Shown here piece by piece: positions 2,902 to 64,000 of a stretch of DNA of 64,000 nucleotides (its first letter is position 1; every line of letters begins with the position of its first letter). Under the pieces are notes generated by a model that did not search any database, was not told the origin of the DNA, and saw nothing but the letters and a program-made list of their open reading frames with translations. Made by a program: the position numbers and the translations under genes. The DNA is from Vulcanimicrobiota bacterium (GTDB lineage Bacteria; Vulcanimicrobiota; Xenobia; Xenobiales; JADMJV01): positions 288,001 through 352,000 of the forward strand of contig JBFWNU010000002.1 in assembly GCA_050250895.1 (NCBI GenBank), in the 5' to 3' direction.

Positions 2902-3330
2902 ATGAGGATCAATGCTAACCCTATCCAACCGACTCATACTCCACCACTCTTACAAGCTTCAAATCAGACCCAGGCGCCGACCTGGGCCGACTGCTTCGAG
3001 CAAGGCTCGCTCAAGATGTGCCGTCAAAATGGCGCTCTGGTCGGAGGCCTGGCCGGTCTGGCCGGGGTTGGGCTGCTGGCCGGCGCTTTGCCTGCTTCGC
3101 TTCCCAGCCATCCTTTGGTTACGCTGTCGGCCCTGGCCATGGGGGGCGTGGTAGGCGCCGTCTGTGGCGCCGAGATCAACGCCCATCTTGGTATCAAGGT
3201 GGGTGAGTGGGGCGCGGGTCTGGCCGAAAAGGCCGGCGGCTCGTCACAGTGGGGACGGGCCGGAGCCCGGACCGCTTTTGCTATGCTACCGTTCGCCGTC
3301 GGCATCGGGGCCGCCCTGGCAATGGGCTGA
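2902..3330 (+). CDS. Hypothetical membrane protein with glycine-zipper helices
   Basis: RBS GGAGG upstream; disordered N-terminus, then GxxxG-rich hydrophobic segments. Confidence 0.6.
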   Translation: MRINANPIQPTHTPPLLQASNQTQAPTWADCFEQGSLKMCRQNGALVGGLAGLAGVGLLAGALPASLPSHPLVTLSALAMGGVVGAVCGAEINAHLGIKVGEWGAGLAEKAGGSSQWGRAGARTAFAMLPFAVGIGAALAMG

Positions 3331-3347
3331 TTGGGGGCTATATCGTG

Positions 3348-3953
3348 ATGAAATTAGAAATCAATTCCATCGGCTACTATGAGCGCAACGCCGAGGCCTT
3401 CTTGGAGAGAACGACAAGAGCCGACGTGTCGAGTCTGTACGAGCCGTTTCTGCGCCGTCTGCCTGAAGGCGGGCACATTCTGGATGTAGGCTGCGGGTCG
3501 GGTCGCGACGCGGCCGCCTTTCTCAAGCTGGGCTTTCGAGTGACGGCCACCGACCCTTCCAAGGCGATGGTCGAGGCCAGCAGCCGGCTGACCGGTCAGC
3601 CTACGCTCAAGCTGGCTTTCTGGGACCTCAAGTTCGAGCGCGAGTTCGACGGAATTTGGGCCTGCGCCAGTCTGCTCCATGTGCCCAAGGTCGAGATGAA
3701 CCTGGTATTGCACCGGCTCATTCGAGCGCTCAAGCCAGGAGGTTGGATCTATCTGTCCTTCAAGCATGGGAATAGTGAGCGAGTCGAACACGGTCGTCTC
3801 TTCAACGACTACACCGAGGATTTGTTTCGACCCATTCTGGCCTTGCAGACCTCGCTGACCATCGAGCGAATCTGGATCACCGACGATCAGCGACCGGCTC
3901 GGACGGAGAAGTGGCTCAACATCCTGGCTCGTCGCAACACGGCTGCCATTTAA
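3348..3953 (+). CDS. Class I SAM-dependent methyltransferase
   Basis: ILDVGCGSGRD motif I; FDGIWACASLLH; LKPGG. Confidence 0.9.
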   Translation: MKLEINSIGYYERNAEAFLERTTRADVSSLYEPFLRRLPEGGHILDVGCGSGRDAAAFLKLGFRVTATDPSKAMVEASSRLTGQPTLKLAFWDLKFEREFDGIWACASLLHVPKVEMNLVLHRLIRALKPGGWIYLSFKHGNSERVEHGRLFNDYTEDLFRPILALQTSLTIERIWITDDQRPARTEKWLNILARRNTAAI

Positions 3954-4021
3954 CACAAATGCAATAGGCAGGTCCCTCTGTCAGCGTTATGCTTGCCATG
4001 CGCGGACGGAAGGATTGCTCA

Positions 4022-4588
4022 ATGAACGTCTCGCTGCCCCCGGCCGGCGCCAATCTACGCCGCCTGGCTCCACCCACCACCTCGGCCGCTCAGCCCTCTA
4101 CTCCTAGCGTGCTGGACTCGGTCGAGTTCGATTCGGCCCCCCCAACGAAACATCGCTGGCTCAAAGCCGGATTGGTGGCCCTGGGCGCGGTAGTGGCAGT
4201 GGGCGCTGCGGCCGCCCCCGCTCAGGCCCAGAACTACTCGACCATCGCTCCCACCGGTCATCCCACCTATTTTGGCACCATTCCCGGTCCGGTCTCGCGC
4301 CCCCAGCCTCGCAGCTACCCCGGGGCCGGCTATAGCTACAGCCTCGGCCCGACCGGCGCCTACATTCATCGCGACCACGGCTCCCATGGCCTGACCGTCG
4401 GACCCAACGGCGCTTATTATCACGGCAACGGCTACACGGTGGGGCCCCATGGGGCCATCCCTCACAGCTCGATCTATCGCGGCAACGGCTATAGCATCGG
4501 TCCCTGGGGCACGGCCGTCCACCGCAATTTCGGTCATTACTCGATCACGGTAGGTCCCCAGGGCACTGCCTTCCACTTTCATCGCTAG
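4022..4588 (+). CDS. Hypothetical exported protein with five (V/I/L)GPxG beta-hairpin-like repeats
   Basis: RBS AAGGA; delayed signal-like segment KHRWLKAGLVALGAVVAVGAAAAPAQA; repeats SLGPTG, TVGPNG, TVGPHG, SIGPWG, TVGPQG. Confidence 0.6.
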   Translation: MNVSLPPAGANLRRLAPPTTSAAQPSTPSVLDSVEFDSAPPTKHRWLKAGLVALGAVVAVGAAAAPAQAQNYSTIAPTGHPTYFGTIPGPVSRPQPRSYPGAGYSYSLGPTGAYIHRDHGSHGLTVGPNGAYYHGNGYTVGPHGAIPHSSIYRGNGYSIGPWGTAVHRNFGHYSITVGPQGTAFHFHR

Positions 4589-4621
4589 GAGGGCCGGTGG
4601 CGGCCGTGGAAGCAGGCTCGG

Positions 4622-4948
4622 ATGGAGCTAGCCTATTCCTCTGACCCCGATTGGTGCTCGCAATGCAAGCACCTGCCCTGCCAGTGTCAGAAGAAGCTCT
4701 CGCGCACCACCGGCACTGGCAAGGTGAAGATGCGGCGCGAGCGGCGCCGGGGCAAAGACACCATCGTCATCTTCGAAACCCGCATGGCTAAACCGGCCCT
4801 GCAAGAGCTACTCAAGCTCATTCAGAAGAGCTGCGGGGCCGGGGGCACGGTCAAGGGCGACACCATCGAGATTCAGGGAGACCATCGCGACAAGATCCAG
4901 ACTCTGTTAGAAGAGCAGGGCCTGAAGGTCACTCGAGCCGGGGGTTAG
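4622..4948 (+). CDS. yciH: Translation initiation factor SUI1/YciH family
   Basis: RRGKDTIVI...CGAGGTVKGDTIEIQGDHRDKI...GG. Confidence 0.85.
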   Translation: MELAYSSDPDWCSQCKHLPCQCQKKLSRTTGTGKVKMRRERRRGKDTIVIFETRMAKPALQELLKLIQKSCGAGGTVKGDTIEIQGDHRDKIQTLLEEQGLKVTRAGG

Positions 4949-4951
4949 GGC

Positions 4952-4980
4952 AAAGAAAAAGCCCCGGCTTTCGCCGGGGC
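4952..4980 (-). terminator. Intrinsic terminator
   Basis: Minus strand GCCCCGGC-GAAA-GCCGGGGC followed by TTTTTCTTT. Confidence 0.8.
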
Positions 4981-5038
4981 GGTCCAACCAATGCTCATCT
5001 CACTAAAGACAGAGTAGTCTGTGAGCGTCAAGGAACCG

Positions 5039-5398: not shown

Positions 5399-5432
5399 GT
5401 TGGGCCCTTCTAGCTTGTGGGGGCGGGTCCTG

Positions 5433-6071: not shown

Positions 6072-6105
6072 GGACCCCAGTTTGTAAAACGGGGGTCCGG
6101 TTCCT

Positions 6106-6516: not shown

Positions 6517-6551
6517 GCTCCTATAGAACCACAGGGTTGAAGAGAACTGCT

Positions 6552-6565
6552 CTGATCTAGATCAT
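6552..6565. promoter_or_regulatory. FNR-like box (TGAT-N4-ATCA) upstream of the hemerythrin-like gene
   Basis: CTGATCTAGATCAT, centred 42.5 nt upstream of ATG 6516; -10-like TTCTAT 6 nt before the ATG. Confidence 0.6.
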
Positions 6566-9086: not shown

Positions 9087-9128
9087 AGCATGCCACACCC
9101 AGGTCGGCCAAAAAATGATCTATATCAG
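9087..9128 (-). promoter_or_regulatory. Class II FNR-type promoter of the crp/fnr operon
   Basis: ATGATCTATATCAG at 9115-9128 (13/14 identical to the reverse complement of the 6552 box); -10 CATGCT 9092-9087 places the box centre at about -41.5. Confidence 0.6.
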
Positions 9129-10126
9129 GACTGGGGTTTCCAGCGGAAAAAGTCGACCATGCGGTCGAAGACATCGGGATCCGAGAACAGGCAGTGGTGC
9201 ACCTTGGTCGCCCCGCCCGAGAAGAGTTCCACCTGACCGCCTGGCGCATAGAGGCTGGATTGCTCGACCAGGCCGTCTCCGGGAGCGCGGTCGCCGGCCG
9301 CAAAGGCCGGGGTCGAGAAATCCCCGCTTCCCACCGTGATGGCTGCCTCGACCTTGGAGATCTGTTGAGCATAGCGCGAGTTGAGGTCTTCCAGCCGAGG
9401 ATTGGCTCCGGGACGCTCGTTCTCGGCCCGCATCCAGTTGAGAGCGGCGGCCGCGGCCGGGGCGAGTCCGCCCAGGGCCATAGCCCAGCCGACCCGGTTG
9501 GCAATCACCTTGTAGCCATCGGTGGCGTTACGAACGCCGCGGTGCGGAGTGCCTCCCATCATCAGGCGGCCCAGCCGGTCGTCGTTCTCGTCTAGATACT
9601 TACGCACGCCCAGGCCGCCCATACTGTGGGCTGCTACATCGAAGAGCTGGGTTCCGCTAAAGCGACGAATGGCCGCGAATTCTTCCTTGAGCTGGCTGGC
9701 CGTGTCCTCGGGGCTCTGAGAGCGGTCATGGGGCACCACCCTGAACACCATCGCCCCGGGCTCGGGTGTCTGGCACTCCTGCTTGCAGCCGGGGTCGCTG
9801 AAAACCTTGCCGCCTTTGACGTAATACGGTCGCCCACCGTTGTGGCCATCTTTGGTCAGGTGGTCGAGGAGAGGGCGAAAGCCGCCCACCTTGGAGCGAA
9901 AACCCTGCACCATCACAAAGGGACGCTCGAGCAGGACGGCTGGCCTGTCGGCTAGCCCGCCGCGCATTCGCGAGGCCATGATTCCCCGGGCCTTGTGCAT
10001 CCCGTAGGTGGCCACTCCCATCAAGCCCTGGCCCAATTCGACCAAATCGAGCGGCTCGCTCGGCGCCTGGGACCGGCTCAGGGCCGCTCTTTGCACGGGG
10101 CTATGCGGTCGCCAGGCAACTTGCAT
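9125..10126 (-). CDS. Alpha/beta hydrolase, lipase/PGAP1-like
   Basis: PFVMVQG, AHSMGG nucleophile elbow, GTPHRG, GDGLV, C-terminal His. Confidence 0.85.
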   Translation of the reverse strand: MQVAWRPHSPVQRAALSRSQAPSEPLDLVELGQGLMGVATYGMHKARGIMASRMRGGLADRPAVLLERPFVMVQGFRSKVGGFRPLLDHLTKDGHNGGRPYYVKGGKVFSDPGCKQECQTPEPGAMVFRVVPHDRSQSPEDTASQLKEEFAAIRRFSGTQLFDVAAHSMGGLGVRKYLDENDDRLGRLMMGGTPHRGVRNATDGYKVIANRVGWAMALGGLAPAAAAALNWMRAENERPGANPRLEDLNSRYAQQISKVEAAITVGSGDFSTPAFAAGDRAPGDGLVEQSSLYAPGGQVELFSGGATKVHHCLFSDPDVFDRMVDFFRWKPQS

Positions 10127-10132
10127 ATTGCC

Positions 10133-10165
10133 AGTCTAGGGCTCTACCCTGAAAGAAACCTGGTG
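10133..10165 (-). promoter_or_regulatory. Phased-repeat promoter, leaderless
   Basis: CCAGG-N5-TTCAGG-N9-TAGACT-N6-ATG. Confidence 0.6.
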
Positions 10166-10186
10166 ACGCGATAAGGCCGCGGTCTT

Positions 10187-10768
10187 CTATCGATCGACGC
10201 GGATGCGAGTGGCGAATTGCAGGCGTTGAGAGAACTCGGCGGCCGACATCTCCTGGCGCGAAGGGCTGTCGGGCCAGGGGTCGCGCAGCACGACCCCATC
10301 GATGACGGGGTTGCCGAACTGGTCACGATGGAAATAGGCACCGGTCATGACGTAGGCGTGGCCGGTCAAACCCACGATCAAGGGGCGGCGCTGAGCCAGG
10401 TCGGCCACGATGGTGGCGTCGTCGAGGTGGGTAGAGTCGGTCGAGACCGCGGCCGGGCGGCCGTTCGCATCGACCGCCAGTCCGTTGAGATTGGCCAGGA
10501 TCTCGAGGGGTCGCCCGGGGCGATCGATAGGTGCGCCGAAGGTGCTCGCCACAATCGCTGCCTGCTGGCTTGGGATACCGTGAAAGCCCATCACCATCTG
10601 AATGCAGGCCGCCCAGCACCAGTTGCTGCGCTGCTGGCGACCCAGGTCCTGGGGTCGGGCCGAGGCCACGAATTCGTCGGTGGGAATCCCCACCGTCTCT
10701 TCGAGAACGGCTGGCTGAGGGCGAAAGGGTGCGTTCCATCCGGGGTTACTGTTGACGGCAGTTACCAT
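10187..10768 (-). CDS. Papain-like cysteine peptidase (C39/C70-like)
   Basis: QQRSNWCWAAC, GHAYV, RDPWP give a Cys-His-Asp triad. Confidence 0.8.
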   Translation of the reverse strand: MVTAVNSNPGWNAPFRPQPAVLEETVGIPTDEFVASARPQDLGRQQRSNWCWAACIQMVMGFHGIPSQQAAIVASTFGAPIDRPGRPLEILANLNGLAVDANGRPAAVSTDSTHLDDATIVADLAQRRPLIVGLTGHAYVMTGAYFHRDQFGNPVIDGVVLRDPWPDSPSRQEMSAAEFSQRLQFATRIRVDR

Positions 10769-10775
10769 TTTCGAG

Positions 10776-15615: not shown

Positions 15616-16668
15616 TTACAGGCTGGTGACGGCCATGTTGTAGAGGGGCAAGAAAGTGGCCAGCACCACGAAGCCGGTGAGCAGGCCCATGACCGTCAGG
15701 ATCAAAGGCTCGAGTAGCGTCACCAGTTGCGATGTGCGCAAGTTGATGGACTGGTCGAAGAACTCCGAGAGCCGCCTGAAGTTGACCGCCAGTTGGCCGG
15801 ATTCTTCCCCAGCCTTGATTTGCACCAGCAGATTCTCGGGCAGCAGACCGCTGATTCGCAAAGCCTCGCTGAACTCTGTACCCTGGCGCACCTCTTCGAT
15901 GCATTGGGCCAACCGTCGACGGTATCCTGGCCAGGGCAGATAGAGAGTCTTGAGGCTGGTGACCAGATCGCAACCGGCGTCGAGCATTAAGTGGAGGTCG
16001 GCCAGACAGTCGGCGTATACTCTTTCGTGATTGAGCTTGCCGAGCAGCGGTGTCTCGAACCAGAGCCATTCCCTCAGCCTCTCGACCCGTGGGTCCGAAC
16101 TCGCGGCCACCACCGCTCCCACCCATACTCCCAGGGTGGTTAGAATCAGCAGTATCGAGGCCAGATTCTGGCTGGCCCAAATCAACAGGCGGGTGGGCCA
16201 GGGTAGGGGGACCCGCAGTCCGGTCAGGAACGGCAGCAGTTTGGGAAACATGTAAAGCGCCATGAACGCGGCCATGGCCGTCGACACCAGACAGAGAAAG
16301 GCGGGATAGGCCAGGGCGCTCTTGAGCGAGCGCTCCATCGTTTCGCGGCGGGCCGACTGCTGGGTGATTCGCTCGAGGACCTCGGCCAGGCGCCCCGAGT
16401 TCTCGGCCACAGTGACGAGGTTGACCACAAAGGCGCTAAAGGTATTACCCAGGCTCTTCATGGCTTCAGAGAGACGCCGCCCGTGGCTGATCTTGGTCAC
16501 CAGAATCGCCGAGGTCGAGGCCAGGCGCGGTTGCTCGCTGGCGGCCAGCGACTCGAGCGCCCTCACCAGGGGCACGCCCGAGCCCCACATCATTTGCAGT
16601 TGCAGAGCCCAGAGGTGGAGTTCGTGCGTGTTGAGCGGGGGGTGGCCCGTCGGCTGGGATGTCGTCAT
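15616..16668 (-). CDS. Type II secretion F / PilC-family platform protein
   Basis: SGVPLVRAL, VAENSGRL, ALAYP, GEESGQL, LLEPLIL...FLPLY. Confidence 0.92.
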   Translation of the reverse strand: MTTSQPTGHPPLNTHELHLWALQLQMMWGSGVPLVRALESLAASEQPRLASTSAILVTKISHGRRLSEAMKSLGNTFSAFVVNLVTVAENSGRLAEVLERITQQSARRETMERSLKSALAYPAFLCLVSTAMAAFMALYMFPKLLPFLTGLRVPLPWPTRLLIWASQNLASILLILTTLGVWVGAVVAASSDPRVERLREWLWFETPLLGKLNHERVYADCLADLHLMLDAGCDLVTSLKTLYLPWPGYRRRLAQCIEEVRQGTEFSEALRISGLLPENLLVQIKAGEESGQLAVNFRRLSEFFDQSINLRTSQLVTLLEPLILTVMGLLTGFVVLATFLPLYNMAVTSL

Positions 16669-19440: not shown

Positions 19441-19737
19441 CTAGGCTGCGGCCGCCGGGCGCGTGGCCGGGTCCTGGCCGGCGTTGGGGCCGTAGTTCTG
19501 CTGCAGGCCCTTGATCAGGCCGTCTGCTCCGGAAGCACCGCTGGCCTCTTGGGGCCCGGTCACGATCTGGTCGGTGGGCAACTGGTTAGCGGGCGGCGCT
19601 TGCGGGGCCACCGGGGCGACTCCGTTGGCCGCCGAGGCGGCCTCGGCATCCTTGTTATCGGTGGTCGATTGAGCCTTGTGCTCGCTGCCTCTGGTGTAAG
19701 CGCTGGGGTCGTTGAGGCCAATTCTCTCTAGATTCAT
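19441..19737 (-). CDS. Small disordered hypothetical protein
   Basis: Strong RBS GGAGGAG; PTDQIVTG motif. Confidence 0.6.
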   Translation of the reverse strand: MNLERIGLNDPSAYTRGSEHKAQSTTDNKDAEAASAANGVAPVAPQAPPANQLPTDQIVTGPQEASGASGADGLIKGLQQNYGPNAGQDPATRPAAAA

Positions 19738-19765: not shown

Positions 19766-19830
19766 ATAGTAGCCGGCCCGACAGGACCCCAGCTGTTCAG
19801 GAGGAGGTCGAGTGTAACAGCCGAGTTAAC
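19766..19830 (-). promoter_or_regulatory. Phased-repeat promoter
   Basis: GTTAAC (59 nt upstream), TGTTAC (48), GTCCTG (16), -10 TACTAT; shares CAGCTGGG.TCCTG...GGCCGGCTA with the 20453 promoter. Confidence 0.6.
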
Positions 19831-20536: not shown

Positions 20537-21871
20537 TTAGCTGATCTGGTGGCGCTGGCTGTCGGGCCAGTCGCGCAAAGCATAGAGTTGAACCAGGCCG
20601 GCCTGATCGATGGTGCTCAACTGACCGTGTCCTTCGTACGAGCCCAGTCCGTTGCCGGAGCGATTGAAGAGACCACTGGAGGGCTCGAGGGCCTGGCTCC
20701 AAGCCCGCTCGAGATAGCCGTCGAGGGCCTGCTCGGCGGCCGGGTCCTCGAGTTGCAGGAGGTTGCGAAAGAAGACCGCGTTAAAGGCCGGCGGCTGGCG
20801 CCACAGAACGTCGTCGCTGAAGTGGTGGAGGGCGGCCCTGGCCGTTTGCTGGGCTTTCTCGAGGTGGCTCGGGTCGCCAGTGAGCCGATACCAGAGCAGG
20901 TGCGCTCCCACCGGGGTTCCCTGGTTGTAGGACCAGACGGTGGGGTCGACCCGACCGCTTTCCAGGTTGACGTTGTCGGCATACAGTCCGTCGGGTTGGC
21001 GCAACCGGCTGTCCATCAACTCGGTCAACTGGCGGGCAAAATCGAGGTGCCGGCTGTCGCCCGTCTGTTGATACAGCCGCAGCGACAGTTCGATGGTGGG
21101 GCCGAGCACGCAAGTGTTGTAAGAGGGATTGGGGTTGCCTTCTTCCCATAACAGGCCGCCGTCAGGCTGCTGGGCCGAGCGCAAGAAGGCCGCGACCTCT
21201 TCCGCTTTTTCGAGATAGCCGCCCTGGGGCACCTGCTGGGCGGCCTGCACGAACACCAGGCCAAGCCAGGCGTTGTCGTCGTAGAAGCGGTTTCCCAGCA
21301 GACCGAAAGGTCCTCGCGAGGAGGCGTAACCTCCCTCCGGGTGGCGATATTGCTCGAGGCCGTTCACCAGTTGCTCGAAGTCGTTGTAGTCGCCCGTGAC
21401 CCTGGCCTGGTCGAGGGCGGCGGCCATCACCTGGCCGTAGGGCCAGACGGTGATGCGGCCGGCTGCCCCCGGCCGGTCGCGCAGGCTCTCCAGTCCTCCG
21501 CTAAAGTGGCCTCGCAAGCCCTCCCAGGCGTAGTTGGCCTGATGAATGCTGGCCTTGAGCTGGGCCGGTGAAGTCACGCCCTCACACGAGAGCACCTGCT
21601 CGAGGCGGGGCGCGTCGTTGAGCGTGGCGCAGGCGATGGCCGGGGGAGTGGGGCCGCCGCCCAGGGTTCCGATCAGCCGGGCCCCCGCCAGCGCCGTCCA
21701 GGCCAGGGCCGCCAGCAGGGGTTTTCGACTCCTGGGAGGGGCCGGGTCGAGGGTGCTCAGAGTCGATCCATCGACGGGCGGGGCCGGCTCGACTCGTCCC
21801 GCCGAGGCTCCGGGAGGCGCGCTGCGCTTGAGCTCGGGTGGATGAACGCGACGGTCGGAAGGCACTCGCAT
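20537..21871 (-). CDS. Glycoside hydrolase family 76 (alpha-1,6-mannanase-like)
   Basis: RFYDDNAWLGL catalytic DD, GGLLW, WSYNQG, FNAVFFRNL; start reassigned to ATG 21871. Confidence 0.85.
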   Translation of the reverse strand: MRVPSDRRVHPPELKRSAPPGASAGRVEPAPPVDGSTLSTLDPAPPRSRKPLLAALAWTALAGARLIGTLGGGPTPPAIACATLNDAPRLEQVLSCEGVTSPAQLKASIHQANYAWEGLRGHFSGGLESLRDRPGAAGRITVWPYGQVMAAALDQARVTGDYNDFEQLVNGLEQYRHPEGGYASSRGPFGLLGNRFYDDNAWLGLVFVQAAQQVPQGGYLEKAEEVAAFLRSAQQPDGGLLWEEGNPNPSYNTCVLGPTIELSLRLYQQTGDSRHLDFARQLTELMDSRLRQPDGLYADNVNLESGRVDPTVWSYNQGTPVGAHLLWYRLTGDPSHLEKAQQTARAALHHFSDDVLWRQPPAFNAVFFRNLLQLEDPAAEQALDGYLERAWSQALEPSSGLFNRSGNGLGSYEGHGQLSTIDQAGLVQLYALRDWPDSQRHQIS

Positions 21872-44166: not shown

Positions 44167-44266
44167 TTGTTTCGATACCACGAACTGACTATAATGATCG
44201 GGCCCAGTTCGTTAACATTTGGCCAAGTCGAGGGTTCAGGAAGTTTTCAGGACCGAACGCTAATCT
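44167..44266 (+). promoter_or_regulatory. Tandem promoters of the 1253-aa gene
   Basis: TTGTTT-N17-TATAAT (44167-44195); then GTTAAC (44211) and TTCAGG-N5-TTCAGG-N9-TAATCT (44235-44266). Confidence 0.65.
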
Positions 44267-44302: not shown

Positions 44303-47300
44303 ATGGTTAATCCGACCAACAATCACATCCACAGAGCCGAAACGGGTGCCACTGGCAAGCCACCGGCCAAAGCCCGACCCGAAACCGAGACCCCGGTTGA
44401 ACCGCAAGACTCGGCTCAAGTAGGCCAACCAACCCACGGCAAAGAGCGCCTGATCGGCGCGGTGGTCCGGGTCGACCCCGACAGAATTGGTCTCAAACGC
44501 GTTGACGACGCGGGCAACGAAGAGTCTTCCAGCATGCTGGCCTTTATCCCCGAAGAGCGGCAGGCTGAATTCGAAAAGATGGGCGCCGTCGTGCCCGAGT
44601 ATGTGGCCGTTCGCTCCGACCTCAACATGCCCGAAGGCAGCAGCATCGAGCCGGTCGCTCTTGAAGCCCCGGCCAACCCTGCCAACACCACCATCGCCCG
44701 CACCATGGAAGTGCCCAAGGCGATGCTGATGCAAGACCCCGACACCGGCCGCGCTCCCATCGAGGATTTTCACGCTCGCCTGGTTCCCAATGATGGCCAG
44801 GTGATGTTCAAAGAAGATATCGAGCGTCTACGACCCAAGACCCACGACCTCAAACTGGCCGATTCGGCCGCGGGCGAAGCCATCGAGAAGCGCCGTAACA
44901 TGCTTAACGGTGTGTCGACTTTCGCCAACCTGATCACCCAGACTTCGTTGCTGGGGTTCTGGAACATCCCCGGCGCCCCCCTCATCGCGGTGGGCACCTC
45001 TGGATTTACCATCAACAAGACGATGGAGACCCTCAAAGGGCTCGAAGACCAGAAAGACTATGTCCGCCGGCAGCGCAAAGAATCCGACGGCGACATCGTT
45101 CAGTTGCGCGTCAACGACCAGTTTTCACGACCGGTGTCGGCCAAGGAAGAGACCAAGCGGCTCTCGAGCCAAATTCTCCAGACCAAAGCCCAGCTGGCTT
45201 CCAACGGGCTGCTGCTCGGGGCGGGCGCCAGCAGCATTCTGGGTCTGATGGCCAACGGCGGAGCCCTCGGTACCGGCACCATGGCCACTGTCCTGGCCGG
45301 CGCCACCGCCTGGACCCCGTGGCTGGCCGGCGCCAGTCTGGCCATGGGTTATGGCGCCAACGTCATGACCACCGTCAAAGAACTCAAAGACCTGGCTGCC
45401 GAGAAGAAAGAGCTGCAAGCGGCCCTGGCCCGGGGCGAGACCACCGTCAAGCACACGCATGAGGTGATCCATCCCCAACTCAAACAGCAGGTCGCCATCA
45501 AAGAAGTCGATATGCCCATCGACAAGCGGCTCGAAGAGATCTCCAAGGCTCAGAAGAAGAACGTTTCGATGCTGGCCCTGATCGGTGGCGGTGTCGGTTC
45601 GGCCGCGGCCACTTTCGGCTTCGCTGCCCCCATGGCCCTGGCCCTGCCGATTTCGCTCGGTCCCGCTGGCGCCATCGTTGGTTTCAACGCCATCGGCGAC
45701 ATGGTCAAGCTCAACGGCGAGAAGAAAGAGCTCAAAGCTCTGCAAGAGTCTGGCCAGACGACCGTCAAGCAGCAGATTCAGATGCCCGAGGGCGAGTGGG
45801 TCGAAAAAGAAGTTCCTATCGAGCAGCGCCTCGACCAGCTGCAGCGTCAGATCAACGGCAAGAAGATTCTGCTCAGCGCCGTGGGCTCGGGCGTGGCCTT
45901 CGCCGGCATGACCGCCGGCCTCGGCATGGGAATGCTGGCCGCCGCCCCCGTGGTTCTGGTGCCCGGCATCGTGGCCGCCGCGCTCTTCCCGAAAGAGACC
46001 AAAGCTATCGTCCAGGGAATCTGGAAATTCATCACCAACATCTTCGGCAAAGAAGCCCGCTCGCGCAAGGCCACCCTCAGCGAAGTGAAGGGACAGGCCA
46101 AGGCCTTCGTCGAGAAGATGAGCGAGCAAGAAAAAGCCCTCAAGCAGGCCAATCCCGACGCCTATGCCAAGCTTAAAGAAGCCTTTGGCAGCTACGCAAC
46201 TTCGACCGACCCGGGTGCGCGGGCTGCTCAGATCGAAGAGATTGGCAAGGCCCTCAACAGCCTCAAGACGGGCGCCCCCGACGCCACTAGGGCCTGGCTG
46301 ACCAGCTTCCGTGAACTCGACAAATCGGTCGAGGGCGAGTGGCGTAAGCACCAGGTGGTGGCCCACATGGTGAGCGATGTGGCCAAGAATGTGTTGGGCA
46401 ACGAGACTCTCAGGACCCGCCTCGACGAAGTCGGTTTTCAGGGCGACATGCGTGATCGCTACGAAGACTTCGTCACCCATCAGCTGGATCCGGGCCAGAC
46501 CCACCAACGCGAATTGCTGGGCAAGGCAGCCAAGGGCGACCAGTCGGCCGGCAAGGAACTCACCATCGACGGTCAGTTTGGTGCCGCCCAGGCGGTCGAG
46601 ACGGCCCGCGAGATGTTTGGCGCCGAGCTGCTCGATTCGATGATCGAGGCCGTGATGAAGTCCGAGAACGGCCAACTGTCGAAAGAGCAGCTCGACGGAT
46701 TCGCCAAGGTAGCCAGTGAAAAGCTCGGTCAAGAGATTCCGGGCCAGGGGCTACAGGCCCTGGCCCAGGGTATCGGTGTGCTCGAGGGCAAGATTCCGCT
46801 CGATTTCTCGGGCGTTTCGGCCCAGCCCCAGGAGCTACCCAAGCTCAACGCCCACGAGCAAGCCATGGCCGAAGCGTTCGGCAAGATGATGGAAGCCGAC
46901 CCCGAGGCCGGCGCCAAACTCAATCAGGCTCTGCTGACCCTCAGCGGCCAGTTCGAGCACGAGCCCAAGGATCAGGCCGAAGCGGCCAAGATGTTCCAGC
47001 AGGCCACCCAGAATCTGAGTGGAGCCATCGCCACCTTCGAGCAGAAGGCTCCCGAAGCGCTGGCCGCCTGGCAAGACGCTCGCAGCAAGCAGATGGAGGC
47101 TTTCCTCGACGCCAACTTCGACAAGTCTGCCTTCGAACAGCTGCTCAACTCGAGTCAGGTGCAGGCTGCTCTCAAAGACACCGGCACCTCGGCCGAAGAG
47201 GCTCAGGTGCTCTTCAAGAAGCTGGGCAAAGCTAATCTGACCCAGGATTTCAGCGAGCTGGCCCCGATTCAGCAAGCCACCGACCCCGCCAGCGCCGAGG

Positions 47301-48178: not shown

Positions 48179-50341
48179 ATGATCTCTGCTTTGACCTCGG
48201 TTCGAAACGCCCAGGCGTTTGGGACCAAACTGGCCGCACGGGAGGGGGAAATCGCGGGGCCACAGGATACGGCGCAGCTATCGCGAGAGATAGCGTCGCT
48301 AGACTCCAAGTTGCCCGGGCATGTGGAAGGGGAAGTGCTGGTCAAGCTGCACCGCGGCTTCCAGGCTGACGAGGCCTTCGTAGGCGACTATGGAGCCACC
48401 CTGGTCGAGGAATTCGACATTCCTCCCGACATGCGCCAGAAGATCGGCGGCAAGATGGTCCATCTCCGCTTGCCCGAGGGCGTGACCACGGCCGAAGCCA
48501 TGGTCGCCATGGGGCGCGACGGCCGGGTGGCCTACGCTTGCGCCAACGAACTCCTGTCCCACTACGGAGACCCGGTCTTTCCTCCCGATCTCGACACCCG
48601 GCTGTGGGGTCTGCACAACACCGGGCAAGACGAAGGCACGGCCGACGCCGACATCGATGCCCCCGAAGCCTGGGCTATCACCACCGGCAAGGGCCTGCAA
48701 GAAAACGGCCCGGTCATTGCCGTGATCGATACCGGCATCGACACCGGCCACCCTGATCTCAGGGCCAACCTCTGGACCAACACCGGCGAGATTCCTGGCG
48801 ACGGCATCGACAACGACGGCAACGGCGTCATCGACGATGTGCACGGCTACAACGCCATCGACGGTAGCGGCAATCCCTATGATGACAATCGCCACGGCAC
48901 GCACTGCGCCGGCACCATCGCCGCCGATGGCACCAACGGAGAGGGCGTGGTCGGGGTGAACCACAAGGCCCAGCTGATGGCCGTCAAGTTCCTCTCGGGC
49001 CAGGGTAGCGGCACCACCGCCGACGCCGTGAAAGGTCTGCTCTATGCCGACCGCATGGGAGCCCGCATCACCTCGAACTCGTGGGGAGGCGGTGGCTTCA
49101 ATGAAGCCCTGCGCGACACCCTCGAGGCCTCTCACGCTCTGCACATCTTCGCGGCCGGCAACTCGAACAACGACAACGATGCCCGCGCCTCCTATCCGGC
49201 TTCGTACGACCTCGACAATATCGTCTCGGTGGCCGCCAGCGACCGCAACGACCAGCGGGCCAGCTTCTCGAACTATGGGGCTACCAGCGTCGACCTGGCC
49301 GCCCCGGGCAAGACCATCTTCTCGACGGTGCCGGGAGGCCGCTACGCCACGCTCAGCGGCACCTCCATGGCCACGCCCCACGTGGCCGGCGTGGCCGGAC
49401 TCATCGCCAGCGCCTATCCCGAGGCCAGCAACGACGACATCAAGGGTCGCTTGCTCAATGGCGTCGACCGTCTACCCCAGTTGACCAACAAAGTCCTTAG
49501 CGGGGGTCGCCTCAACGCCGCCAACTCGCTCGAAGACGACCACATCGCCCCGGGAGCTCCCAACGATTTTCGCACCGAGGCCGCTGGCGCGCGCACGGTG
49601 CGCCTGAGCTGGACGGCCACCGGTGACGACGGGTGGTGTGGTCGCGCCTCGGCTTACCAGCTGCGCCATGCCGACCGGCCTATTGTAGAAGGCCCGGCGG
49701 GAGAGTCCGAAGTCGGCTTTGATCAGGCCACCACGCTGGTCGCTCCCAAGCCGTCCGAAACCGGCACCATCGAGCAGGTGATGCTTAACCTGCCGCCCTC
49801 GGGTCAACCTCGGACCCTCCACTTCGCCCTCAAAGTGGCCGACAACCTCGGCAATCTCTCGGAGATCCGCACGGCCACCGCCCAGATTCCCGCCTCGACC
49901 GTGGCCTTTCAGGACAATTTTGACAACAACCAGCGGGGCTGGACGGCCGAAGCCGATTGGGCCCGCATCGACGAGCCTGGTCGAGGCAAAATCTGGACCG
50001 ACAGTCCCAACGGCAACTACGCCAACGAGCGCAACGCCTCGCTGGTGTCGCCCCCCATCAATCTGGCGGCCATTCGCAACAGCGCGCTACTTTTTGACAC
50101 TCGCTACGAGATCGAGCAGAGCTTCGACCGCCTCCACCTCGAGGTCTCCACCGACAACAAGATCTGGAACAAGCTCGAGGACTTCACCGGCCGCAGCGAG
50201 TGGAAGCAGCATCTGGTCGACCTCTCGCGCTACGACGGCCAGACGGTCCGCCTGCGCTTTCGACTCGAAAGCGACAGCTCGGTGGTGCGCGACGGTTTCT
50301 ATCTAGACAATATCTCGGTCGTCGGCGACCCCAACATCTAG
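48179..50341 (+). CDS. S8 subtilisin-like serine protease (propeptide, catalytic, FN3-like, jelly-roll), paralog 1
   Basis: [29 protein letters not shown]; no Sec signal. Confidence 0.95.
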   Translation: MISALTSVRNAQAFGTKLAAREGEIAGPQDTAQLSREIASLDSKLPGHVEGEVLVKLHRGFQADEAFVGDYGATLVEEFDIPPDMRQKIGGKMVHLRLPEGVTTAEAMVAMGRDGRVAYACANELLSHYGDPVFPPDLDTRLWGLHNTGQDEGTADADIDAPEAWAITTGKGLQENGPVIAVIDTGIDTGHPDLRANLWTNTGEIPGDGIDNDGNGVIDDVHGYNAIDGSGNPYDDNRHGTHCAGTIAADGTNGEGVVGVNHKAQLMAVKFLSGQGSGTTADAVKGLLYADRMGARITSNSWGGGGFNEALRDTLEASHALHIFAAGNSNNDNDARASYPASYDLDNIVSVAASDRNDQRASFSNYGATSVDLAAPGKTIFSTVPGGRYATLSGTSMATPHVAGVAGLIASAYPEASNDDIKGRLLNGVDRLPQLTNKVLSGGRLNAANSLEDDHIAPGAPNDFRTEAAGARTVRLSWTATGDDGWCGRASAYQLRHADRPIVEGPAGESEVGFDQATTLVAPKPSETGTIEQVMLNLPPSGQPRTLHFALKVADNLGNLSEIRTATAQIPASTVAFQDNFDNNQRGWTAEADWARIDEPGRGKIWTDSPNGNYANERNASLVSPPINLAAIRNSALLFDTRYEIEQSFDRLHLEVSTDNKIWNKLEDFTGRSEWKQHLVDLSRYDGQTVRLRFRLESDSSVVRDGFYLDNISVVGDPNI

Positions 50342-55826: not shown

Positions 55827-55833
55827 AGCCCCA

Positions 55834-57833: not shown

Positions 57834-57839
57834 TCCCTG

Positions 57840-58667: not shown

Positions 58668-58676
58668 CCTCACTCT

Positions 58677-58720
58677 ATTATGAGCTGTAAGGGGTCGATT
58701 TTTGTTGCCAATCTGTTGCC
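58677..58720 (-). promoter_or_regulatory. Phased-repeat promoter
   Basis: GGCAAC-N5-GGCAAC-N21-CATAAT. Confidence 0.7.
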
Positions 58721-58756
58721 GCCCGGACAGGTCACCGATCCGAGATTTGTCAGAAC

Positions 58757-58800
58757 GGTCATATAACGGTTACTTCTGCGTGTTGACCCCGGTTTAGACT
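58757..58800 (+). promoter_or_regulatory. Phased-repeat promoter
   Basis: GGTCAT-N5-GGTTAC-N21-TAGACT (AACGGTYA repeated at 11 bp). Confidence 0.7.
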
Positions 58801-58836
58801 GCCAACGGGCCCACCAGGCCCATAGAGAGGTGCGTC

Positions 58837-61047
58837 ATGATCACAACCATCAAGAGCAGTCCGACTATTGCTCCTCACATCGCGGCCAAAGCCGCCGAGC
58901 CCCTGGACCGCTTCGAGCCCTCCCGCGATTCTTTCTCGGTGGCCGAGGCCATCGATGCTTCTTCGGCCGAGGCGGCTTCGCTGCGCCTGAAGATGGCCGA
59001 CGAGGAGTATGTCCCCGGAGAAGTGCTGGTCAGGATGGCCCCCGGCCTCAAGGCCGCCAGTCTCGAAACTTTCGCCGCCGATTATGGCGCCAAGGTGAAG
59101 TGCCACTTCGATGTGCCTGCCAGCATGCTGGCCGCCATCGGGGGCGAGATGATGTCTTTGTCGTTGCCCGAGAGTCTCGATGTGGCCGGAGCGCTGGCCG
59201 CCATGCGGCGCGACCCGCGGGTGGCGGTGGCCGAGTCCAACGACATTTTGCACGCCGTGGTCGACCACCCCGAGCCGGTGACCCCCAACGATCTCGACGG
59301 CAAGCTCTGGGGGCTTTCCAACACCGGTCAAGACGGCGGCATCGCCGGGGTCGACTGCAAGGCCAGCCTGGCCTGGAACATCAGTACCGGCACCAACGAG
59401 GGTCCGGTGGTGGCGGTCATCGACACCGGAGTCGACTTCGAGCATCGCGATCTGCGCAACAACATCTGGCGCAATCCCAATGAGGCGGCCGACGGGGCTG
59501 ATACCGACGGCAACGGGGTGATTGACGATCTGGTCGGCTACAACGCCATCGACGACAGCGGCAACCCCACCGACGAGAACGGTCACGGCACTCATTGCGC
59601 CGGCACGATCGGGGCCGAGGGCAACAACGGAACCGGAGTAGTTGGCGTCAACTGGCGAGCCCGGGTCATGCCGTTGCGCTTCCTGGGCGCGACCGGTTCG
59701 GGCACCACCGAAGACTCGATCAAGTGCGTGCTCTACGCCTCGAAGATGGGGGCCAAGATCACCTCCAACTCGTGGGCCGGCTTCAAATACAACCAGGTTC
59801 TCTATGATGCGATGGCCGCTTCGCCCGCGCTGCATGTGTGCGCCGCCGGCAACGAAGGCTACAACAACGATGTGCGCCCGGTGTATCCGGCTTCCTACGA
59901 GTTGGACAACATCATTTCGGTGGCCGCTCATGATCGCCAGGACCGCCTGGCCAGCTTCTCCAACAGCGGCTCGGGCTCGGTGGATCTGGCCGCTCCCGGC
60001 GTGGACATCTACTCGACCAAGCCGAGTAACGCCTACCAGAGCTTGAGCGGCACCTCCATGGCCACGCCCCATGTGGCCGGCGTGGCTACGCTGGTCGCTT
60101 CAGCCTACCCCGATGCCACGCCCGAGGACATCAAGCGGCGGATCCTCTCGGGGGTCGATCAGATGCCCCAGCCGTGGGCCGGTCGTCTGACCACGGGTGG
60201 TCGCCTCAACGCCCTCAAAGCGCTCGAGAACGACCAGGTCGCACCGGCTCCGGCCTCCGACCTGGCGGTCAAGCAGATCGGCACCGAGTCGGCCCAGCTG
60301 CAGTGGACGGCCACCGGTGACGACGGGACCGAGGGGCACGCTAATGGATACGAGCTGCGCTACTCTGACCATCCCATCGTGGACGGCGAGGCCGCGCCTG
60401 GTCAGGTCGGATTTGACCAGGCCACCAAGGTGCGCATCGAGGCTCCCAAAGACTCGGGTCAACTCGAGTCGACGGTGGTCAAGTTCGCTCCTTCGGGCCA
60501 GGAGCGCAAGATGTATTTCTCTCTGAAAGTCATCGATAACGTCGGCAACCGCTCGCCGGCCCAGACCGTCGAGGTGGCCGTGCCCACCACGCCAGTGGTG
60601 CTCGAGGATAACATGGACGGCCAGCGCTCCGAATGGACCGCCGATGCTGGCTGGGCTCGTGTCGAGGTTGAAGGTCGCGGTCAGGTCTGGACCGATAGCC
60701 CGGCTGGTGATTACGACGCCAACTACGACGGGGCCATCACTTCCAAGGAGTTCTCTCTGGAAGGCCTCAAGAACAGCAAGCTCAACATCGACCTGAAATA
60801 TGATGTCGAGCAGAAGCACGACGCCGTTACCGTCGAGGTCTACGGCAGCAGTTGGTGGATGCGTAAATGGCGACAGGTAGCTTCTTTCGACGGCATTGAC
60901 GCTTGGAAGACTCACCAGATCGACATCTCGAAGTATGACGGACAGAAAGACCTCAAGGTCAGAGTGCGCCTCGAGACCGACAGTTCTCGTCACCGTGACG
61001 GGGTCTATGTCGACAACGTCGTCATCACCGGCGAGCCCGACAAATGA
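58837..61047 (+). CDS. S8 subtilisin-like serine protease, paralog 2
   Basis: [25 protein letters not shown]; same domain order as 48179. Confidence 0.95.
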
Positions 61048-63146
61048 CGCGTCAGGACCTGAGCGAGTTCTTCGGCTTTGACCGGCTTGGTAATGTAGTC
61101 GTTCATCCCGGCCGCCAGACACTCGTTGCGGTCCTCTGCGCTGGCGTTGGCAGTGACGGCAACAATCGGCAGTCGCTCTAGCCCGCGGGCGCGAATCCGG
61201 CGGGTGGCCTCGAGGCCGTCCATTTCTGGCATCTGACAATCCATCAAGACGAGATTGTAAGAGGACAGGTGGACGGCCTCGACTGCTTCCTGCCCATTGG
61301 CTACCACGTCACACACGAACCCCCGCTTCTCGAGCAGGCGGAGCAGGTATTTCTGATTGATGAAGTTGTCCTCGGCCACCAGAATGCGGTGACCCGGCCC
61401 GGCGCGGACGGGGCGGTCGGGGGCTTTCCCCGGCTGGGTCAGCTCGAGCAACTCGCCGACGACCCGCCGCAGGCTGTCGTGGCGCGCCGGTTTGGTCAGG
61501 ATGTCGTCAAACAACCCCTCGGTCACAAGCTGTCCCGGATCACTGGTCATCAACAGCAGGCGCATCGACGACCCGCATCGAGCCCTCAACTCGCCGGCTA
61601 GTTGGAGCCCATCCATTCCTGGCATGCGAAAGTCGATCAGCGCTAGCGAAAAGCTTCTCCCACGGTCGATCAGGCCCAGCGCTTCCAGGCTGTCGACGGC
61701 TGTCGAGACTTGAAGTCCCCAGCTGGTCAATAGTCGATCGTAGATGCGGCGATTGGTGGGATGGTCGTCCACCACCAGGACGCGATGATCTCGGCCGAAA
61801 GACCACTCCTCTTGGGGCATTGGGCTTCCTGGTGGCAGCGGAATCTCGAACCAGAAAGTAGAGCCGTGTCCGACCTTGCTGCTGCAACCGATTTCGCCCC
61901 CCATGGCCTGGCACAATCGCCTGCAAATGGCTAGTCCCAGACCCGTTCCGCCGAATTGGCGCGAAGTGGACGAGTCTACCTGAGAAAACGACTGGAATAG
62001 GCGCCCCATTTTCTCTTCGGGGATGCCGATGCCGGTGTCGACGACTTCAAAACGCAGCCAACCCTTTTTCAATGGCTTGACTTCGAGGCCGACACTGCCC
62101 TCGGGAGTGAACTTGATCGCATTGGATAGTAGATTGAGCAGAATCTGACGCAGCCGGGTCGGATCGCCACGGACCCAGTCGGCGATCTGGGGGTCGATCG
62201 AGACGGGCAGACCAAGATTCCTTTCTCGGGCTTTGAGCGAGACGATTTCGATAACGTCTTCGAGGCATCTGCCCAGCCTGAAATCGAGTTCTTCGAGTTC
62301 CATCATGTCGGCTTCCAGCTTCGAGAAATCGAGGATGTCGTTGATGAGGGCCAGCAAGGCCTCGCCGGAGCGATTGATGGTCTCGGCAAAATCTCGCTGT
62401 TCGAGGTCGAGTTCCGTATCGAGTAGAAGCCCGGTCATTCCCAGCACACCGTTGAGGGGAGTTCGAATCTCGTGGCTCAGGGTGGCCAGAAATGTGCTCT
62501 TGACCTGGTTGGCCCGCTCCGCCTCGCGTCGGGCCCGGTCGAGTTCCCAGGCCTGGCGTCGCAGCATCTCTCGGTCTTCGAGTGCTTTGATGATCCAACG
62601 GTTTTGGCGCACCGCTTGCGACCAGAGAAAGATACCGTAGATCACGATCACGGTGGGCTCGGAGGCCGATTGGACCGCCACCCCTGCCAGCGCCGCGGGG
62701 GCCAGCAACAGCCACAAGAAGTTTCTGAGGATGGTGCGATGGGAGGAAAGGGAGCCAGTCCCACCCGAGCCGATGCCAGCGGTGGTTAAGAGCACGAACA
62801 GCGAGGTCCACTCCCCCGGATAGCGATAGACGGCCAGAGCCGCTAACCCGCCCCAGGTCGCCGCCGCCAGGTAGGTGCTCCAGGCAAAGCGCTGGAGCCA
62901 GTGCGCGGGAGCCTCGTGGTAGTGCTCGAGCATCCTGGTGTAGGTCCAGAATCGAGCTGCTCCCAGGGCGGTCATCAATCCCAGCAACAAGCCGATCTCG
63001 ATCGGATAGTCCCGGAACATCGAGGTCGAGAAGGCGACCGCCAGACCCAATAGCGGATAGACGACGGCAGACTCGGGTGATCGTCGCGCTAGAGTCAGAT
63101 CGGCTTCTGCCTGGACGCTGGAACGAAGCATGCGATCGTTGGTCAC
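61005..63146 (-). CDS. Hybrid sensor histidine kinase (TM region, HisKA, HATPase, two REC)
   Basis: [32 protein letters not shown], two receiver domains. Confidence 0.95.
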
Positions 63147-63388
63147 GACTCTCTTCTCGGAGGTTTGCCTCGCGGCTTAAGTCGCTGCACGCCGCGCCGC
63201 TCGCGGGACGCCTTGTCGGCCCCCTGGCCCGCGGCTTGTCGGGGCGCACCCTTAAACAATCATGAAAATGTTCATACGTAGTTCAAAACATGGCCCGTTC
63301 AAATCAATATTCTCCTTCTAGACGTCTCACCGGCCCGTGCTACAGGGGCCAGTTTAAACCGATAAAACCCAACAACATCTAGGAGAGT

Positions 63389-64000
63389 ATGATGATTTCC
63401 CAAATCCGCCCTCAGACCTATGTCTCGTCCACGCCCAGCGCTCGCGCTGCCGCTCCCGCGGCCCAGCAAGAAGCCGCTGCCCCTTCCGAGTCGGTGTCCC
63501 TTTCCGGCGCCGCCCCTCGGGTCGACCTGGCTGGCGTTCTTTCCGCCACCGCCAAAGAAGCTGCTTCGCTCGCTTCCAAACTTCCTGAGCACGTCGAAGG
63601 CGAAGTGCTCGTCAAGCTCGGCCCCAACGCCTCGCTCGACGCCATGACCGACTTCGCCAGCGACTACGGCGCGACGATGATCGAGAAGTTCGATGTTCCC
63701 CAGAACATGTTCAAAGCTTTCAACGGTGAGCTCGTTCACCTGAAGCTGCCCGCCGGCATGTCCACCGCCCAGGCGATGGCCGCCATGGACAAAGACCCCC
63801 GCGTCCAGTACGCCGCTTCCAACGACATCCTGCACACCCTCGGCAACGCCGAGCCGGTGGTTCCCAATGACCTCGACAGCCGCCTCTGGGGCATGAACAA
63901 CACCGGTCAGACCGGCGGAACCGCCGATGCCGACATCGACGCTCCTGAAGCCTGGTCGATCACGACCGGCAAAGGCGCCGCCGAGAACGGCCCCGTCATC
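63389..64000 (+). CDS. S8 protease paralog 3, 5' part; runs off the window edge
   Basis: Manual translation MMISQIRPQ...PSESVSLSG...KLPEHVEGEVLVKL...LWGMNNTGQTGGTADADIDAPEAW; RBS AGGAGA; not in the ORF track. Confidence 0.9.
   Translation, partial: MMISQIRPQTYVSSTPSARAAAPAAQQEAAAPSESVSLSGAAPRVDLAGVLSATAKEAASLASKLPEHVEGEVLVKLGPNASLDAMTDFASDYGATMIEKFDVPQNMFKAFNGELVHLKLPAGMSTAQAMAAMDKDPRVQYAASNDILHTLGNAEPVVPNDLDSRLWGMNNTGQTGGTADADIDAPEAWSITTGKGAAENGPVI

Follow-up and report, generated by a model that had tools for sequence, protein, structure and literature searches.

Non-flagellar proteins leave some bacteria through a flagellar-type gate. In the predatory Lysobacter enzymogenes OH11, a flagellin-less flagellar type III secretion system (T3SS) is needed for protease and glucanase secretion (PMC7688988), and the Cia proteins of Campylobacter jejuni and YplA of Yersinia are secreted via the flagellar T3SS (PMC2764114). 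The export information in these systems is N-terminal and, in the excerpts of these reports drawn on here, a handful of substrates are described and no common sequence motif is reported. For early (rod and hook) flagellar subunits, the corresponding excerpts of Bryant et al. (eLife 2022, PMC8983047) describe a signal in two parts: the extreme N-terminus is small and hydrophobic, and another motif lies 30 or more residues into the protein, the spacing between them being needed. Here, we describe an N-terminal sequence tag found in a 64,000-nucleotide stretch (the window; G000:C2:288001-352000) of the 9.5 Mb genome of a soil or marine bacterium (17 contigs, 63% G+C, 99.6% complete). Unlike the Lysobacter, Campylobacter and Yersinia cases, about 2% of the proteome bears a sequence-defined tag here, and the genome also has a putatively dedicated second flagellar-type apparatus beside a normal flagellum, and a common promoter box. 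We put the probability that the tagged module is an export signal for this second apparatus at about 0.5, the case for the route being circumstantial.

An N-terminal motif of the form P-x-D/E-x-x-x-[LVF]-[SG] had originally been predicted to recur in ten proteins of the window. All ten quoted motif strings are present at the quoted starts, and the recurrence is real at the scale of the genome, as scored on 8299 genes called over 90% of the genome by our own hexamer-likelihood caller, which is crude, as are its start assignments. An iterated, genome-trained 14-column matrix, scanned over residues 5–70 (consensus P-P-x-P-x-D-x-[F/V]-x-[P/L/I]-S-x-P-P), reaches 14 bits or more, our cut-off for a carrier, in 150 of 7886 N-termini, versus 2/5844 and 3/4078 internal windows and 5/7868 reversed N-termini; most counts below use a set of 152 carriers. 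In split-half validation, the held-out halves gave 47/3930 and 34/3956 N-terminal matches versus 0–2 internal ones. A gapped 4-mer scan with no prior motif placed D.V.LS (37 observed in residues 16–60 versus 8.9 expected, P = 1.7e-12) and D.F.PS (18 versus 1.6 expected) among the most N-terminally enriched words. Internal windows hold almost no matching words. The pattern as first written is itself enriched at residues 21–40 (69 matches), but merely about twofold, with 10–37 matches in each of fourteen other 20-residue bins, whereas the sharper P.D.[VIFLA].[LIVF][SG] gives 43 matches at residues 21–40 and 1–13 in each of the others. By the matrix, the ten original sites divide into five that reach 14 bits, two borderline ones and three weak ones. 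Carriers are spread through the genome rather than clustered (at most 4 per 64 kb, P = 0.96), and the window holds four strict ones.

Within a disordered, Met-anchored N-terminal module about 35–40 residues long, the motif constitutes block 3. Block 1 is M-x-I, with isoleucine or valine at position 3 in 75 of the 152 carriers compared to 1254 of 8299 proteins (15%), and isoleucine alone in 36% versus 7%. Block 2 is an arginine peak at residues 14–19 within a Pro/Ala/Thr-rich, Leu-poor linker; over residues 2–25 of carriers, proline is 2.5-fold enriched, leucine is at 0.44-fold, and the net charge is +1.3 versus +0.07. Block 3, P-x-D-x-[V/F]-x-[L/P/I]-[S/G], has its aspartate at a median of residue 32 (interquartile range 29–35). 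The module is translated: its third-codon-position G+C content (GC3) is 0.70–0.72, close to the 0.73 of codons 2–36 genome-wide, and falls to 0.54–0.56 in the 120 nt upstream, placing the true starts ahead of the motif. ATG is the start codon in 111/152 carriers.

This layout resembles the early flagellar T3SS signal, as far as the excerpted account presents it (PMC8983047), in its disordered N-terminus, its constrained spacing and its small non-polar start (2-SIAV-5 in FlgD; isoleucine or valine at position 3 here). Both non-polar residues among the first few and a comparable motif spacing (Asp median 32) are found. The tag differs in its presence on about 150 non-flagellar proteins, and docking to the FlhB C-terminal domain (FlhB-C) is putative here. 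A suggested likeness to FlgM is not detected by profile search, as none of 40 module peptides (the seeds of our alignment A1) matches PF04316 at E up to 1, and the sole match above the cut-off in the genome is the true FlgM (C1:558747-558902). FlgM is nevertheless a disordered flagellar T3SS substrate, and the organism's own FlgM has S-S-V-E-V-S near residue 40, similar to block 3; the carriers, in contrast, have neither its sigma-binding C-terminal half nor a sigma-28-type promoter box. The module has no match in Pfam, NCBIfam or the PDB. A homologue search with alignment A1 and longer proteins gave 12 matches with E no greater than 10, of which five or more fall on contigs of this same genome, and is uninformative on spread. 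Such a tag is unmentioned in the titles and abstract openings of the papers retrieved on Eremiobacterota, secretion and flagella.

Pfam searches on 113 carriers identified many degradative enzymes: S8 proteases with a Fervidolysin-type prodomain and MAM domain (10), clostripain C11 (3), M13 (2) and M36-like peptidases, alpha-amylases (2), an NS endonuclease (Endonuclease_NS), Exo_endo_phos, PLD-like (PLDc_2), an MGH1-like glycosidase, an alpha/beta hydrolase, an ATLF/M90-like metallopeptidase and a PTP-like phytase, as well as LysM (3) and peptidoglycan (PG)-binding (PG_binding) proteins. PI3/PI4-kinase-like, Macro+HD and cytidine deaminase proteins also bear the tag, as do small Gly-rich membrane proteins. 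No family was found at the cut-off for 58/113 carriers (54/107 in the main set and 4/6 long ones). At least three matches are plain false positives (LysRS, RuvB and AAA_21). The same may hold for a tagged Pep_deformylase match (C1:2438913), although a GTTAAC box precedes that gene by 103 nt. S8 proteases and similar degradative enzymes normally act outside the cell, and the carrier set is typical of a secretome or effector set. Among 33 S8-like paralogues, nine have a strong tag, several have weak variants, and a single one has a signal-peptide-like start (judged by eye), so that the tag occupies the place of a signal peptide on normally extracellular enzymes. The original prediction of a targeting signal added to many hydrolases is thus partly supported; the tag is not confined to hydrolases, since SecA-like, GGDEF, PilZ, kinase-like and lipid-desaturase proteins are tagged too.

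The expectation that tagged proteins are devoid of Sec signals applies to two thirds of them. By a Kyte-Doolittle 12-mer window, a crude classifier that does not replace SignalP, the 70 residues that follow the motif contain no hydrophobic 12-mer in 101/152 carriers, which hence have no signal-peptide hydrophobic core (h-region). A hydrophobic stretch lies downstream of the tag in 39/152, mostly as Gly/Ala-rich segments of small proteins, and in 12/152 the stretch ends in a lipobox-like sequence, convincingly so in about eight (..LAGC, ..LSGC); a few A-x-A signal peptides also occur. Two of the ten proteins in the window depart from the expectation: the one starting at 4022 has a signal-peptide-like stretch (...WLKAGLVALGAVVAVGAAAAPAQA) after the tag, and that at 2902, a small Gly-rich hydrophobic protein, has a Gly-rich hydrophobic stretch there. 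Extended signal-peptide regions with conserved motifs are known from autotransporters (ESPR), from accessory-Sec substrates (KxYKxGKxW) and as YSIRK. About one third of the carriers resemble these in having a conserved motif in a long N-region before an h-region; two thirds differ in having no h-region, and the module matches no NCBIfam or Pfam entry.

As the original prediction had proposed, the genome was searched for flagellar-type export gates, and two full FlhA, two FliP and two FliI were found, within two sets of FlhA, FlhB, FliP, FliQ, FliR, FliF, FliG and FliI. The first set lies at scattered loci and also comprises flagellin, FlgK, FlgL, FliD, FliS, FlgM, FliA, MotAB, FlgH, FlgI and a full hook. 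The second (cluster 2) is compact (C1:1458932-1476156) and consists of FlgB, FlgC, FliE, FliF-J, a lytic transglycosylase, a FliK-like ruler, a 271-residue FlgE/F/G-like protein, FliM, two FliN, FliO-R, FlhB and FlhA. Gate, ATPase, MS ring, C ring and rod are thereby represented, whereas flagellin, a full hook, a stator and the L/P rings are not encoded in the cluster; the genome as a whole has a single flagellin plus FlgL. Like the Lysobacter apparatus in the excerpted report, cluster 2 is without flagellin. Both secretin genes of the genome lie on contig C1, at distances of about 0.5 and 0.8 Mb from cluster 2. A predicted complex of the FlhA C-terminal cytoplasmic domain (FlhA-C) and FlhB-C of cluster 2 with the module alignment scored 0.12 (mark 0.32), which counts neither way.

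Further flagellar-type genes lie elsewhere in the genome. One locus (C1:1289668-1294728) encodes a small FlhB-C-like protein, two FlgF/G-like rod proteins, a rod-binding protein and a second FliA-like sigma factor, has a GTTAAC sequence 140 nt upstream of its first gene, and may belong to the second apparatus. Eight proteins consist of FlhA-C alone fused to other N-termini (helix-turn-helix, transmembrane or unknown; C6:529281-530666, C1:2013805-2014935, C1:2473655-2476609, C7:121829-122929, C1:1126937-1128199, C7:117220-118743, C1:2008491-2009819 and C8:31611-33212), and relatives have up to 15 FHIPEP matches per genome. For four of these eight genes a carrier is found no more than about 6 kb away, which is approximately chance by a rough estimate, and none of the eight has the box described below.

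The carriers and cluster 2 are linked by a cis-regulatory element, in agreement with the proposed type III connection. GTTAAC lies upstream of 27/152 carriers versus 274/8138 other genes (Fisher 4.5e-12), mostly at −50 to −120, and 268 of 399 GTTAAC sites fall outside called genes, which is 9.8% of the DNA. A tandem form phased by 11 bp (TGTTAACA-N3-4-G[GT][TC]AA[CT], the strict pattern) is found upstream of 39 genes only, comprising 13/152 carriers and 26/8147 others. These non-carriers include flgB, the first gene of cluster 2, and its flgE-like gene, i.e. both operon starts, as well as a small divergent gene beside flgB (itself encoding D-V-F-T-P-S) and several genes for proteins with M-x-I starts. 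None of the 78 genes at the loci of the filament-forming system has GTTAAC upstream; flagellin and flgM carry sigma-28-type boxes (GCCGATAA- and GTCGATAA-type). Sigma-28 control of the carriers was rejected, as a TAAA-N13-17-[GC]CGA[TA]A box precedes 0/152. Promoter-box regulons of injectisome T3SSs are well known, for example the hrp box of Pseudomonas syringae and the PIP box of Xanthomonas. As in these, a short element stands before both apparatus operons and many substrate genes and could be used to predict substrates. The element itself is different, and the apparatus is flagellar-type rather than an injectisome.

Other words enriched upstream of carriers are TTTCAG(G) (34/152 versus 471/8138) and CTAGACT(G), for instance at 10127-10260, before the lipase-like gene, and at 58700-58836 of the window; these words possibly form a core promoter, either of the same regulon or of a second one. 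In a 2.5 Mb genome of family f9 (G006), 149 matches to the strict pattern were found, often in 11-bp-phased arrays, and the box may have spread there as a repeat.

Conservation was assessed in 81 genomes of the phylum, including this one, in families denoted by f numbers. S8 orthologues occur in 43/81 genomes, and the N-terminus could be located for 26 loci in other families. Most of these begin MINSIGS.../MIPEIRS.../MLIQPS... and carry SDQVDI, SDSVEV or SDSISLS; the matrix from our genome gives at least 12 bits for 8/26, while five start differently and score below 2.5 bits. No signal peptide was seen by eye in any of the 26 N-termini. The module is thus kept on S8-protease orthologues across the phylum. 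A 42-position module hidden Markov model (HMM), built from the 40 module peptides, has matches in 14/80 relatives at E up to 0.001, and in other families the matched proteins, S8 proteases and Gly-rich membrane proteins, have this architecture too. The sensitivity of this HMM is low, as judged by its recovery of about a dozen non-seed carriers in our own genome.

The FlgB of cluster 2 (FlgB2) occurs in 51/81 genomes and in 0/27 of families f14, f19 and f20. S8 orthologues are found in 41/50 FlgB2-positive relatives versus 1/30 negative ones, and module HMM matches in 14/50 versus 0/30. The box precedes flgB2 in 15/28 loci (families f1, f3, f4, f8 and f13, and 2/15 f2 loci); two further, strict-pattern boxes lie 115-130 nt upstream of flgB2 in G010 and G035. 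The box precedes tagged genes of relatives in 18/34 loci. The strict pattern is present in 35/81 genomes, against 0-1 matches per genome for a reversed control, and in 1/23 genomes of f14, which is FlgB2-less.

We favor export via cluster 2 because of the early-subunit-like layout of the module, its occupation of the signal-peptide place, the box common to the carriers and a filament-less apparatus, and the Lysobacter precedent. The tag would stand in for a Sec signal on at least 150 proteins, which are degradative enzymes, toxin- or effector-like enzymes and small Gly-rich membrane proteins, and would deliver them to the cluster 2 export apparatus. By analogy with early flagellar subunits, block 3 would dock the unfolded N-terminus at a cytoplasmic component of the gate, and the extreme N-terminus, held about 30 residues from block 3, would then enter and open the gate. 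Carriers and apparatus would be switched on together via the common GTTAAC direct-repeat box.

Several observations weigh against this interpretation. Block 3 is not F-x-x-x-hydrophobic, unlike the early flagellar gate-recognition motif, while the organism's own rod, hook and FliK proteins do show F-x-x-x-L/M (AFENHL, QFNDIM, AFSSAM). Some carriers are of cytoplasmic or membrane type: the SecA paralogue, GGDEF, PilZ, ADP-PFK-like and uridine-kinase-like proteins, a CoA ligase, three lipid desaturases and DJ-1. In 51/152 carriers, a hydrophobic or lipobox-like stretch about 21 residues past the motif points to Sec, and a pure type III reading leaves this class, in which tag and hydrophobic or lipoprotein signal are combined, unexplained for about a third of the set. 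No chaperone-like or other family is enriched among the neighbors of carriers. The box is neither general nor exclusive to carriers, since exact GTTAAC at −160 to −30 precedes 27/152 (18%) of them and 271/8299 genes; family f2 has FlgB2 and tagged S8 proteases, yet the strict box in 0/16 genomes. The co-occurrence of tag and FlgB2 is also weak evidence, reflecting one or two events rather than 30, because it is mostly one clade (f14, f19 and f20) that lacks everything, and FlhA, present in 80/81 genomes, is useless as a phyletic test.

The cytoplasm-acting carriers (the boxed SecA paralogue, GGDEF, PilZ, kinase-like, CoA-ligase and lipid-desaturase proteins) would be accommodated if the module were an intracellular docking or localization tag, which holds proteins at the base of cluster 2, at a pole or at a membrane patch; signal peptidase would free the tagged Sec substrates and the other proteins would work on site. 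A short conserved linear motif in a disordered region is typical of binding motifs, and a tag that precedes ordinary lipoprotein or Sec signals would stay in the cytoplasm until cleavage. However, docking would leave ten S8 proteases with a secretion-type prodomain and MAM domain, as well as C11, M13, amylase, NS nuclease and LysM/PG-binding proteins, in the cytoplasm with no export signal. Neither a partner family beside the carriers nor an enrichment of the stand-alone FlhA-C genes near them is seen, and these genes have no box. We regard docking as unlikely, though as an alternative of some substance. The class with a signal peptide or lipobox after the module would also suit a Sec-linked path, and thus export by another route, either SecA-paralogue-assisted Sec or an ABC or other transporter not recognized here. 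SecA2 systems export some signal-less proteins, and an extended N-region with a conserved motif is a known property of accessory-Sec substrates (KxYKxGKxW). This genome has two SecA, one of which, a 1194-residue paralogue (C12:63314-66898(+)), belongs to the same box regulon, with a tandem box at −54 and a 170-residue disordered, tagged N-terminal extension. On the other hand, there is one SecY only, and the paralogue is patchy in distribution; being itself tagged, and with six SecA matches in one relative, it looks like cargo rather than a machine. A single SecA match was found in 9/10 genomes of genus g4 of f2, 5/5 of f12 and 6/6 of f13, all lineages with tagged S8 orthologues, so that a SecA paralogue cannot be the general route; dependence on an accessory SecA2 was rejected on this ground. 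With 101/152 carriers also devoid of any h-region, and with no Gly-Gly in the motif and a sole C39 match in a 233-residue frame speaking against an ABC exporter, we consider another route rather more doubtful than docking.

Low complexity and a Pro/Ala-rich composition, together with a box common to just part of the carriers, would be compatible with a module that has no targeting role, such as a lineage-specific disordered extension (a regulatory or degradation tag, or a pro-peptide) spread among co-regulated genes. Such an extension would not be expected to hold a Met-locked position, or to keep two blocks over family-level distances while the linker varies; the module is also systematic on enzyme families that need an export signal elsewhere, and its words are nearly absent internally. 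We therefore find this explanation improbable. That the module is an artefact, with real starts downstream of the motif and the upstream frame untranslated, is scarcely credible. It could draw on the crude start calls and on some 20 carriers with an in-frame start candidate just before a normal signal peptide. Against it, codon-position G+C within the module is that of coding sequence in all three classes (no hydrophobic stretch, hydrophobic stretch, lipobox-like end) and falls just upstream, the distance of the motif from the chosen Met is constant, relatives conserve both the M-x-I start and the motif at the amino-acid level, and the S8 proteins have no alternative downstream signal.

Cargo signals of other machines were considered and rejected. 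No match to PF04984, PF05943 or PF04965 (sheath, VipB and gp25 of contractile injection systems of the T6SS/eCIS/PVC type) is present in the 99.6% complete genome, and no VirB4 was found that would indicate a T4SS. Encapsulin cargo-loading was set aside in the absence of a PF04454 match in the genome, other encapsulin families not having been searched. A double-glycine leader for a C39-ABC exporter was discarded on the consensus and the C39 result given above.

The tag sites and boxes of the window are collected in Table 1. The HMM score of the protein at 2902 is by construction, since its peptide was a seed of alignment A1. The protein at 4022 and the 1253-residue protein (ORF 44303-48064) have no Pfam family, and the "lipase" of ORF 9125-10126, so named in the original prediction, has none at E 0.001. 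In the S8 protease of ORF 48179-50341, the prodomain directly follows the tag. ORF 58837-61047 comprises a Fervidolysin-type prodomain, S8 and MAM, and the orthologues in relatives retain the tag, whereas the S8 protease at 63389 extends beyond the end of the window (63389 to 65716 in window coordinates).

Table 1. Tag sites and GTTAAC boxes in the window, with the residue number of the block 3 aspartate (D) and the matrix score of each tag (ORF, open reading frame).
Position	Strand	Feature	ORF	Family match or basis	Matrix score (bits)
2902..3009	+	Weak tag, MRINANPIQ... start, degenerate block 3 ADCFEQ, D at residue 30	2902-3204		-2.1
4022..4135	+	Weak tag LDSVEF, D at residue 32	4022-4588		7.3
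10028..10126	-	Tag PLDLVELG, D at residue 27, on lipase-like protein	9125-10126		17.0
10658..10768	-	Weak tag PTDEFVAS, D at residue 31, AvrRpt2-like Peptidase_C70	10187-10768	PF12385, E 4.3e-7	7.8
19552..19737	-	Tag PTDQIVTG, long linker, D at residue 56, 98-residue protein	19441-19737		14.0
19825..19830		GTTAAC box, 93 nt upstream of 19737(-) start (ATGTTAACTCGGCTGTTACAC)		Sequence	
21752..21871	-	Borderline tag PVDGSTLS, D at residue 34, GH76 glycoside hydrolase	20537-21871	PF03663, E 1.3e-29	13.4
44211..44216		GTTAAC box, 92 nt upstream of 44303(+) start (TCGTTAACATTTGGCCAAG)		Sequence	
44303..44428	+	Tag PQDSAQVG, D at residue 36, 1253-residue protein	44303-48064		20.0
48179..48286	+	Borderline tag PQDTAQLS, MISALTS... 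start, D at residue 30, S8 protease	48179-50341		13.9
58837..58926	+	Tag PLDRFEPS, MITTIKSS... start, D at residue 24, S8 protease	58837-61047		21.7
63389..63508	+	Tag PSESVSLS, MMISQIRPQ... start, D at residue 34, S8 protease			21.0

The window also encodes an ankyrin-repeat protein with a C-terminal DUF4253 (601-2784(+)). Together with the AvrRpt2-like C70 protease (10187-10768(-)), it represents eukaryote- or effector-like domains in an environmental bacterium.

Large paralogous families are a further feature of this genome. It encodes 73 type II secretion (T2SS)/type IV pilus (T4P) platform paralogues (T2SSF, PilC/GspF-like), an extraordinary number for one genome; many stand beside pseudopilin-like genes, one lies in the window (15616-16668(-)), and 2/73 have the box upstream. 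A second family of 61-66 paralogues of 325-1689 residues ("family X"; e.g. C1:271742-273904(-) and C2:540168-541481(-)) shares the N-terminal sequence ...L(D/E)SSGxFT(L/V)Dxx(K/R)AxxKLxxFQLxxPxxYxLKLVQAAVxxGA, which accounts for the top N-terminal word S.G.FT. A prepilin signature was ruled out as the origin of that word, the sequences belonging to family X. Another family of about 15 members, with R.FGCEWELA..H near the N-terminus, is the source of top words in the gapped 4-mer scan. T2SSF-like genes (73 paralogues) and family X (66) adjoin some carriers at the chance rate (p 0.2-0.9).

For the biology of the organism, the immediate consequence is that signal-peptide predictors would label about 100 of its exoenzyme-like proteins cytoplasmic, and that the tag offers a simple sequence rule for predicting which proteins make up the secretome or the effectors of a phylum that is widespread but almost uncultured. 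If export via cluster 2 is correct, the module would be, as far as we know, the first sequence-conserved, rather than merely compositional, tag for a flagellar-type T3SS, and a second flagellar-type apparatus would have been kept phylum-wide for secretion under its own promoter box. A bolder and rather unlikely extension is that the filament-less apparatus of the phylum serves generally to deliver effectors against other microbes, the sequence-defined tag marking more than 150 cargoes. In that event, the carriers that fit poorly above would be effectors. After delivery, the Sec and lipoprotein machinery of the target cell would sort anew those with a second, internal signal of either type, and the target cytoplasm or membrane would be the site of action of the tagged SecA-like, GGDEF, PilZ, PI-kinase-like, deaminase and lipid-desaturase proteins. 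That large-genome Eremiobacterota live by attacking other microbes is an idea raised on other grounds, according to the excerpted part of an earlier report (PMC9259500), and the tag makes it testable.

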